Source: Lytechinus pictus
Taxonomy: Eukaryota
Direction of reading: 5' to 3'
Length of the DNA stretch: 64,000 bases
NCBI RefSeq assembly: GCF_037042905.1
Contig: NC_087245.1
Span: 20,648,001 to 20,712,000 of the forward strand
Shown piece after piece: positions 52,501-55,500 of the stretch. A program made the position numbers and the translations under genes. The notes under the pieces are model-generated. The model made no database searches. It saw only the letters and a list, made by a program, of their open reading frames with translations, and had not been told where the DNA came from. Within the stretch, counting starts at the first letter, position 1, and each line of letters begins with the position of its first letter.

Positions 52501-55500
52501 GTACTGATGCACTTAATTACAAAGAGAGACGGAGCTCAGAAGGATTTTTAAAAGAGATGAAAAATTGAGGAATTAATATATAGGGCCTAACTACTTGTAG
52601 CATGAACAAAATATATATGAAAAGAGTCATGGATGATAAGTGAAACTAATACAACAATCTTATGTAGATAATATCACTGTATGCTTGGCATATAGTCAGG
52701 ATATTATGGTACTAAAAGAAATGACAAATTTTGTGACTGCTAGACCCTGTCATAAATTTAATCATATTTTTCGTTTGTGTATTGGGATTATAGAAATTTA
52801 TGAACTGCTAATTTTATTTTGCGTGCTAAAGAGAAGAGACAAACTTGATGACAATTTTCATCACAAAAGTTATGACATCCACCAGAATACAGATTCTGTC
52901 GTATCTCTGAGAAAAGACAGAATATTGAGGATAGACAATGTTCAGGATACCGCTCCTGGGGCCATTTCATGAAATTTCATAAAATATGCATGACTTTACA
53001 CATAAACTGGTGACCTGTTTTTGTGTTAATTGAGATACTCAAATTATTAAGAAAAAAATAAGATCCATTTGCATTCAATTTTAGTCTAAATAAATTGGAT
53101 TTCAACTTTAGCTGATTAGAATAAAAATGATGAAAAATCTAATTTAGTAATCAAGGAAGGATCAAGGGTCATTCATGCAGTCATGTTTAACTTATCAAAA
53201 GCTTAATGAACACCATCCATGCCTATTTTCTTGCCTCACAATTGTTAATTTCTCATCTTCATGCAGGGAAAACAAGCTAAATCACATCACCAAAATTGGA
53301 CCTGGTTTTATGGTGCTCTACAACTGATCCATTATATCAGAGCTATTGACAAATGGGTCATTCCACTGTCCGCGTGTAAAATGCAAAATATATTCCATCT
53401 TTTTGACATAACTCATTCCCTATGTCATGCAGTCCATTATGATTTTCTAGCTTAGCTGATCGCACATTTTTTTTAGCCATTCAAATTTGTCTTTTACAAT
53501 AATTTTTTTTTGCAACCACTGACCTCAAGATCTGGTATTATTTGACATGATCATCACAATTACTTTATGATTTAGGCTATGCTTTACAGTATATCACGGT
53601 GCAAATCGTGACCGTGGGAACTAAGTAGTATGTCTTACTTGTGCTTCGCTTTTTACATTTTATTACCTTATTCTGATCTGTTTATAATAATTAATTATTT
53701 TTCAGATAATTCCTCAACTCATGTATACAATTACCAACCTTGTGATCACCCTGGCAAACCGTGTGATTCCGACTGCACCTGTATTATGCTCCAAAACTTC
53801 TGTGAAAAGTTCTGCCAGTGCTCGACAGAATGTAAGTATCATTGTGTTAATGATGATGATGATTAGGATGGTGGAGGATGAAGCTGTTGCTGTGATGGTG
53901 TTGCTGATAACCTTTGCAATGATGATGACAATAAGAAGAACGAAAACGACAATGACCACAATTATGAAGATTGTGCGACTGATGACGATGGTGATGATGA
54001 GGGTGACTGTAGTGATTATAATGTTGAGGATGATGAGGATGGTAATGAGTTTGATGATAATGTTGATGGTAGTGATGATTACATTTATAATTGATTGTAA
54101 TAATGATGATGATGAGGATGGTAATGAGTTTGATGATAATGTTGATGGTAGTGATGATTACATTTATAATTGATTGTAATAATGATGATGATGAGGATGG
54201 TAATGAGTTTGATGATAATGTTGATGGTAGTGATGATTACATTTATAATTGATTGTAATAATGATAATGATGACTGTGATGATGATGATGATGATGAGGA
54301 TGGTAATGAGTTTGATGATAATGTTGATGATAATGATGATTACATTTATAATTGATTGTAATAATGATGATGATGATGATGACTGTGATGATGATGATGG
54401 TGGTGATGATGATGATTATAATGATGACAACAACCACCCAGGCAAACCTTTTTACTCTATTTGCACCTAAATCATTCTTCAATTCTGTGAAAAATTCTGT
54501 CAGTGCTCTCCTGAATGCAAAAAGTATCACTTCAATACTAGAGGAGAATAAATGCCCCAAATAAATGCTTTTTATAAACAGAAGCAACGATGAACAAGTA
54601 CTTAAACTCATACACCTTTGATTGCTGAATTTGCGTGTGTTGAGATCTGAAGTTGGCAACGCACTTTGATAATGAGGTAATTATAAAGAGCGTACGATCC
54701 CTTCCCCCCACCAGATGACAATTTTATCACAATCAACCATCATTATAAAACATATCCTTGAGATGAATTATGCAATTTGCTTTATGACTGACAAATCTGT
54801 GTTTTCTGCATGTATGTTTCTTTTACTTTAAGGTCAGAATCGATTCCCTGGTTGCAGATGTAAAGCTCAATGTAACACCAAGCAGTGTCCATGCTACCTC
54901 GCTGTAAGAGAATGTGATCCCGATCTATGCCAGACTTGTGGAGCAAGTATGTTACAGAATTTATGGGCTTATTCAGGGGGGAGCAGGTTGTCGCACAGCA
55001 CAAAAATTTCATTTGGTGAATATTCAGGGATTTTCGTTTATGAGGTTAGATTGTTCTGATGAAGAAAAGAATCAAAATTTCATGAAAAACACTCTTTATT
55101 CTCTGAAATGGTTTTTTAAAAAAACCTTGGAGATTATCCCACTTTAACATCATCTTTTGTGTCTCTATCAGAGTTCGTACCAAGAGTCATTTTCATTGTT
55201 TTTTTTGTTTTTTTTTACTTCCTTGCAGGTGTGTTCACTGATAAAAGTACAAGTGAAAGTATATCCTGCAAGAATGTCAGTCTACAACGAGGATGGAAAC
55301 GGGTAAGAAACATCTCCATTGTTGCTTTTGCTATTCATAAAGATAAAATAGATGATGGGACATCTATTATTTTCTAGCAGAAGAGCTGGCATCTCTAGAG
55401 AGTTACAAAAGTATGAATTAATATTTTGCCCATTAAACACAAAGCAATGTTTTGTGTTTTGTTGATATTTCATGTTATGGACTCATGATGAGTATTGTCA

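Follow-up and report, generated by a model that had tools for sequence, protein, structure and literature searches.

A dead intronic duplicate of part of the EZH2 CXC exon in the sea urchin Lytechinus pictus, and the possibility that it was once coding

Several described systems come close to the locus that we report. First, in tandem exon duplications and mutually exclusive exons, an intron contains a same-strand homologue of the neighboring coding exon (PMC9013439, PMC9741552). Unannotated intronic copies of this kind are common, with 4,027 targets in human genes (PMC9013439). The sequence that we describe is also an intronic, same-strand homologue of the coding exon next to it, but the copy comprises only the 3' part of the exon and its donor, lacks an acceptor, has a closed frame, and had no reads in the one RNA run examined. 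The main texts of these two surveys (supplements aside) do not mention EZH. Second, competition between duplicated 5' splice sites has been described (PMC3413131), and the newborn duplication that we propose would likewise have had two like tandem donors more than 45 nt apart. However, that work used engineered substrates in human systems, while in the urchin the second donor is dead, with its past use a matter of reconstruction. Third, mouse ex14D-EZH2 is a natural isoform that skips the equivalent exon, with altered CXC domain and altered H3K27me3 activity (PMC6282306, PMC13408116). Skipping removes the cluster, whereas our model for the urchin would have doubled it. Finally, introns can be gained by tandem genomic duplication (PMC4974935, PMC3443670). 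As in those cases, a short intragenic tandem duplication lies inside an intron, but no new intron was formed; instead, the existing intron was lengthened at its 5' end.

We found no published account of this copy, including among the matches listed for sea urchin EZH2 or PRC2 (and leaving aside the supplements of the tandem-exon surveys). In its present state, the copy is a dead duplicate in an intron, and such duplicates are common. If the coding phase proposed below is true, then the catalytic subunit of PRC2 tolerates a doubled CXC zinc cluster, in a mirror image of the mammalian exon-14 skipping isoform, and the locus is a natural record of a duplicated donor that altered a protein and was then undone by triplet expansion.

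The EZH2 gene lies within the window (the whole stretch of 64,000 nt of L. pictus DNA that was analyzed). The parts of the gene that concern us are as follows.

37559..60462, + strand: EZH2 coding region, with 20 coding exons; the exon chain translates to 746 aa
53706..53831, + strand: live CXC exon (coding exon 13), 126 nt, phase 1/1, AG before and GT after
54833..54946, + strand: next exon, with most of the second CXC zinc cluster; RNA depth ~20 in run X18

The translation is identical to L. pictus XP_054753383.2 (746/746 residues) and has 12 mismatches to the protein of L. variegatus. The live exon aligns to residues 513-552 of the 746-aa EZH2 chain 5hyn_A, and it contains two C-X6-C-X3-C-X-C motifs. 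Mouse Ezh2 exon 14, which is alternatively skipped, also has two such motifs according to the part of the article that describes it (PMC6282306), so the live exon is probably the equivalent of mouse exon 14.

Downstream of the live exon, and before the next one, are the remains of a second copy.

54432..54516, + strand: dead copy of the 3' part of the exon, with TAA at 54468-70, one codon deleted after 54482, and a Pro codon at 54510-12
54517..54529, + strand: decayed second donor and intron start, with GC for GT, three extra A, and then 8 bases identical to the live tail

By blastn, 54435-54529 matches 53747-53841 at 73% over 98 columns (E = 9e-9). When each of the 20 exons was masked in turn (using exon ends that were 1-2 nt off), just 1/20 had a copy elsewhere in the window, with a score of 82 versus 27-38 for the others. 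These two results rule out a chance similarity. Much of the first-pass annotation of this DNA holds as well: it had given the coordinates of the live exon correctly and had reported a copy of its 3' part with a TAA and the segment FCEKFCQC. The extent that it gave, 54435-54529, does align, but the copy starts one codon earlier, at an Asp codon, as judged from the loose ends of sequence from a related camarodont (relative B). The codon that is missing from the copy is Asn 53795-7 of the live exon (a 3-nt deletion), and the substitutions relative to the live exon include C>F, D>Y, D>I, and M>I.

The copy runs past the end of the exon into the first 10 bases of the intron, so it includes the exon end, the donor, and the intron start (8 intron bases are identical after a 3-nt insertion). 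Because the homology runs on into intron bases, the copy was made as DNA; a processed, cDNA-derived copy would not fit, as the sequence continues with the intron and not with the next exon. A TGT/TGC pair that had been counted as synonymous actually reflects a change of the donor from GT to GC, after which three A have been added. With its frame closed by the TAA, a 3-nt deletion, and its donor broken by the GC and the three extra A, the copy is a dead duplicate.

The copy was without use in the one RNA run that we examined. Its RNA depth was 0 in raw run X18 (~6% of the run, 32 reads; one shallow sample). In this run, 12 RNA reads had a loose end at 54833, and their consensus was the 3' end of the live exon (agreement 0.95). 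None of these 12 junction reads from the urchin skipped the live exon, and the junction reads through the copy that the first-pass annotation had envisaged were absent from this ~6% of the run. (Four of the 20 runs listed were aligned to 54420-55320, a stretch that has the live exon and the GAT tract outside it.)

The copy occupies the same position, preceded by GAT-type sequence, in two relatives: relative B (contigs X9 and X10) and relative C (X16). Two X9 contigs of relative B cross the copy with 0 gaps, so relative B has the same deletion and the same A insertion. Relative C probably shares the deletion, as the first gap is at 54523 among the gaps listed (12 of 35). Among the 40 of 114 letter differences listed, none separates a relative from the window at the TAA or at the GC donor, a sample in which private differences could be hidden. 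Relative B is ~10% diverged from the window in the intron, and the shared deletion and insertion contradict the earlier suggestion that the copy died recently. The copy differs from relative B at 12/111 and 10/96 bases, versus 15/151 in the adjoining intron, and the six listed changes at 54451-54497 since the relatives' split fall 2/2/2 by codon position (small numbers). Thus, the copy has changed like intron since that split, with no codon-position bias. From the shared lesions and the intron-like change, we conclude that the copy was broken before the relatives split and has been drifting since. We reject current use or current constraint, given 0 RNA depth in the part of run X18 that was read and intron-like change. 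No relative with two intact CXC exons was found, the camarodonts covered being relatives B and C.

How the copy came about is suggested by the sequence that separates it from the live exon.

53740..53841, + strand: putative first unit of a 102-nt head-to-tail duplication, from the first Cys codon to intron base +10; covers C517-C547
53842..53846, + strand: putative junction, where the second unit would start (TTGTG), immediately past the donor-tail homology
53847..54431, + strand: degenerate GAT tract, probably seeded by the second unit's Asp codon; includes tandem units of 79 and 103 nt that are recent

The copy probably originated as a head-to-tail duplication of the 102 nt at 53740-53841 that never had an acceptor of its own, and growth of GAT at the second Asp codon would have separated the units by 0.6 kb. 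The two donor tails are homologous as far as intron base +10 (53841), and the five bases that follow are identical to those of the exon from 53740 on. This is the only match of at least 3 bases among 42 candidate starts. TTGTG has a background frequency of 0.002-0.004 per base, and the same 5-mer occurs near the start of another GAT tract in EZH2. Degenerate GAT sequence fills the whole stretch from 53842 to the copy. The GATs are in the live frame at one end (23/24 within 53842-54091) and in the frame of the copy at the other (14/14 within 54342-54441), and the register shifts only where a motif that was recently amplified occurs, in four copies (54080, 54159, 54238, and 54341). Also, the Asp codon just before the copy's His position is kept in relative B. 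Short as it is, the junction evidence (a 5-nt match in the right place, with register at both ends of the tract) suggests a head-to-tail partial duplication, which both-frame register would fit. There are other degenerate GAT/ATC tracts at 57195-57445, 11191-11310, 18511-18630, and 60781-61050, so such tracts are common in the region.

We propose, with a probability of roughly 0.4, that the copy was coding for a time through the downstream donor. The unit at 53740-53841 would have been duplicated head-to-tail with the frame kept, as 102 nt is a whole number of codons. The reading would have crossed the junction without a stop, so that the second, intron-proximal donor was usable, and use of that donor would have given a 228-nt exon and an EZH2 with two copies of its first CXC zinc cluster. 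Purifying selection would then have acted on both units for some time and left an excess of third-position differences. The GAT tract would have expanded later, from the second unit's Asp codon, and the coding phase would have ended before the split from relative B by loss of the second donor or by a frameshift in the growing tract.

Several features of the sequence are relevant to this proposal. The 102-nt unit reads E-C-K-Y-H-C across the junction, with no stop, and C517-C547 within the unit comprises exactly 8 Cys and 1 His. The parts of the structural papers that we draw on describe the CXC domain as two three-zinc clusters (PMC3868588) and the make-up of the first cluster as Zn3Cys8His (PMC12292988); by this count, the nine residues are presumably the ligands of the first cluster. 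In HeLa systems, when two like donors are at least 45 nt apart, the intron-proximal one is reported to take ~100% of splicing (PMC3413131, in part). If this preference in human systems carries over, then a fresh duplicate with an intact donor was probably expressed, as a 228-nt exon with a doubled cluster. Myeloid cancers are reported to carry mutations of CXC zinc ligands (PMC3868588), which raises the possibility that an EZH2 with a doubled cluster would not be tolerated.

The case for past constraint comes from the pattern of substitutions. Over codons 2-29 (27 aligned), the copy and the live exon differ 3/3/13 times at codon positions 1/2/3. Third positions thus differ at 13/27 sites, as compared to 6/54 at positions 1 and 2 together (pS = 0.77, pN = 0.11). 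A Fisher test on the codon differences (P = 0.0005) has the wrong null, and we set it aside. Instead, we compared a model in which the copy was dead from birth with one in which it was constrained and then dead. Applied to the copy as it is today, the comparison gives a likelihood ratio of 3.6-9.3 (P = 0.001-0.03). In simulations of a copy that was dead from birth, the observed third-position share of 13/19 was reached in 0-3% of matched runs, even at double the synonymous rate (P = 0.003-0.03). By this measure, the synonymous excess beyond that of a neutral copy, which the first-pass annotation had claimed, does hold, but its significance is lost under some assumptions. For the older copy, with the relatives' states restored, the likelihood-ratio P value ranges from 0.002 to 0.28 by assumptions. 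It is 0.045-0.28 with two variable codons dropped, and it is 0.10-0.28 with those codons dropped or with the live state taken as ancestral and synonymous sites 1.5-2 times faster. The Bayes factor for constraint is 1.5-13 with a Ser/Pro ancestor, 2.8-45 with an Ala/Pro ancestor, and 0.8-3.8 with both codons dropped.

Synonymous sites are perhaps ~1.5 times faster than the intron. The next exon (54833-54946) has four listed differences from relative B, all of them synonymous, where 2.5-3 would be expected (the interval is wide). Faster synonymous sites would weaken the case for past constraint. Also, the copy was chosen for study because of its third-position bias, and 27 codons were compared. 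Gene conversion from the live exon can be rejected by reasoning, as it would erase differences rather than bias them. Overall, we take the third-position excess as moderate evidence of past constraint on the copy.

Two residues bear on the age of the duplication. At 54451, 54455, and 54456, all three runs from the relatives have G, T, and G, which gives the older copy Cys and an Ala codon at these sites. Two residues of the S. purpuratus protein, Ala526 and Pro545 (numbered as in L. pictus), set it apart from the live exon, and both occur in the older copy. Pro545 is also found in Diadema, protein P0005, and Anneissia, so the Thr was derived on the live branch. Ala526 is common to the older copy and S. 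purpuratus, and the residue is Ser in Diadema, P0005, Apostichopus, and Anneissia. Ala526 recurs in two starfish and one hemichordate, and the Ser/Ala site varies among echinoderms. These patterns suggest that the duplication is old, near or before the split of Lytechinus and Strongylocentrotus; age alone requires no constraint. Under the model of a copy dead from birth, the age is ~0.2 substitutions per site per branch. A depth of ~0.2 may reach the Lytechinus-Strongylocentrotus split if relative B is about as distant as L. variegatus (the EZH2 protein mismatches used for this scaling are 12 vs. 45).

The extended form of our proposal is that the ancestral sea urchin EZH2 long carried an in-frame, doubled first CXC cluster by way of the duplicated donor. 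Lytechinus would then have kept the upstream unit, with the downstream unit left as a fossil, and S. purpuratus would have collapsed to the downstream sequence (with Ala and Pro). We consider this longer history doubtful.

The alternative that survives best is that the same head-to-tail duplication was silent from birth, or almost at once if the second donor was broken early. The third-position excess would then reflect substitutions on both branches and a higher synonymous rate, together with small numbers and the reader's selection of this copy. The junction and the register fit this account equally well, likelihood-ratio P values as high as 0.10-0.28 would allow it, and the listed changes since the split are even across codon positions. 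A depth of ~0.2 that reached the genus split would account for the ancestral Pro. Furthermore, the cluster motif occurs twice in 0/248 proteins (3 of the 248 do not have the motif). Similarly, 0/62 loci from metagenomes have a second tblastn match under E = 0.9, except for one overlapping match on the reverse strand, but these loci, at 57-80% identity, are too distant to serve as outgroups. There was no candidate among protein records of 22-72 residues, and a whole-protein search gave no further echinoids beyond the five found earlier. On the other side, a copy that was dead from birth rarely attains the observed third-position share in the simulations, an in-frame unit with the whole cluster has a chance of ~1 in 10 (by our estimate), and the Ala match to S. 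purpuratus would have to be coincidental or the result of a reversal on the live branch. We view early silencing as a distinctly possible, if tentative, explanation.

The first-pass annotation had instead proposed two mutually exclusive CXC exons: a tandem duplicate of the whole exon, whose downstream member died and lost its acceptor and 5' part to the GAT tract. In the strongest form of this idea, S. purpuratus kept the downstream exon and Lytechinus kept the upstream one. It would explain the third-position excess, and the match of the older copy's Ala to S. purpuratus is most parsimonious if the units split before the genera. Also, the live exon has the same phase at both ends (1/1, symmetric), and alternative skipping is reported for its mouse equivalent (PMC6282306). 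However, the tract has no acceptor-like AG (at its 20 AGs, at most 10/20 bases are pyrimidines, versus 12-17 at 19 true acceptors) and no remnant of the first 38 exon bases (58/300 shuffles score equally well). A 'YN' in the tract, considered as a remnant of the 5' part of the exon, is not above shuffles either. The whole intron between the two exons would have to be replaced exactly to the end of the tail homology, and the 5-nt junction and the double register would be left to chance, whereas both fit a partial duplication. Moreover, there is one version of the exon per species in 12 Lytechinus, 3 S. purpuratus, 3 Diadema, and 7 Patiria records. We therefore find mutually exclusive exons improbable. 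Finally, a fusion scar between diverged whole-gene copies or haplotypes (a 5' half and a 3' half that overlap here), or an ectopic patch, would yield a synonymous-biased, 5'-truncated copy without an acceptor, and Lytechinus-derived residues do number 12 up to and including the live exon and 1 after it, but this is highly improbable because later exons are far more conserved in all lineages (with S. purpuratus-derived residues split similarly, 8 vs. 2), the other exons have no fossil in the window, and a second Lytechinus EZH locus is absent among the top protein matches.

A few other observations concern EZH2 itself. A second GT lies six bases past the donor of coding exon 12 (51352-51359), and its use would insert Gly-Lys directly before the CXC exon. 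Annotations of L. pictus, L. variegatus, and Patiria include both donor forms, which suggests that the choice is conserved across urchins and starfish. The site matches a lysine-rich loop of human EZH2 that is subject to automethylation. The proteins of S. purpuratus (795-803 aa) and P0005 (791 aa) have ~50 extra residues around the intron at 42865-44070, and tblastn gave no trace of these residues in the window; EZH2 of Lytechinus and Diadema is ~747 aa, without them.

The window also contains a variety of repeats. Within EZH2, two intronic palindromes of ~190 nt (56010-56199 and 43021-43215) are 85% and 78% self-complementary and look foldback- or MITE-like. An inverted pair of ~260 nt, 80% alike (46551-46807 and 52700-52959), lies in two EZH2 introns and flanks four coding exons, and an intronic tandem array with 162- and 192-nt periods precedes the last coding exon (59394-60199). 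Elsewhere, an array of ACA-type triplets that looks Thr-rich, with higher periods of 57-123 nt (23638-24543), and a 39-nt array of 22 copies (5574-6448) could each be a coding repeat of another gene. A 279-nt array at 15227-16611 has five copies at 97%, and two 53-nt arrays (7792-8180 and 10307-10642) are apparently one unit on opposite strands.
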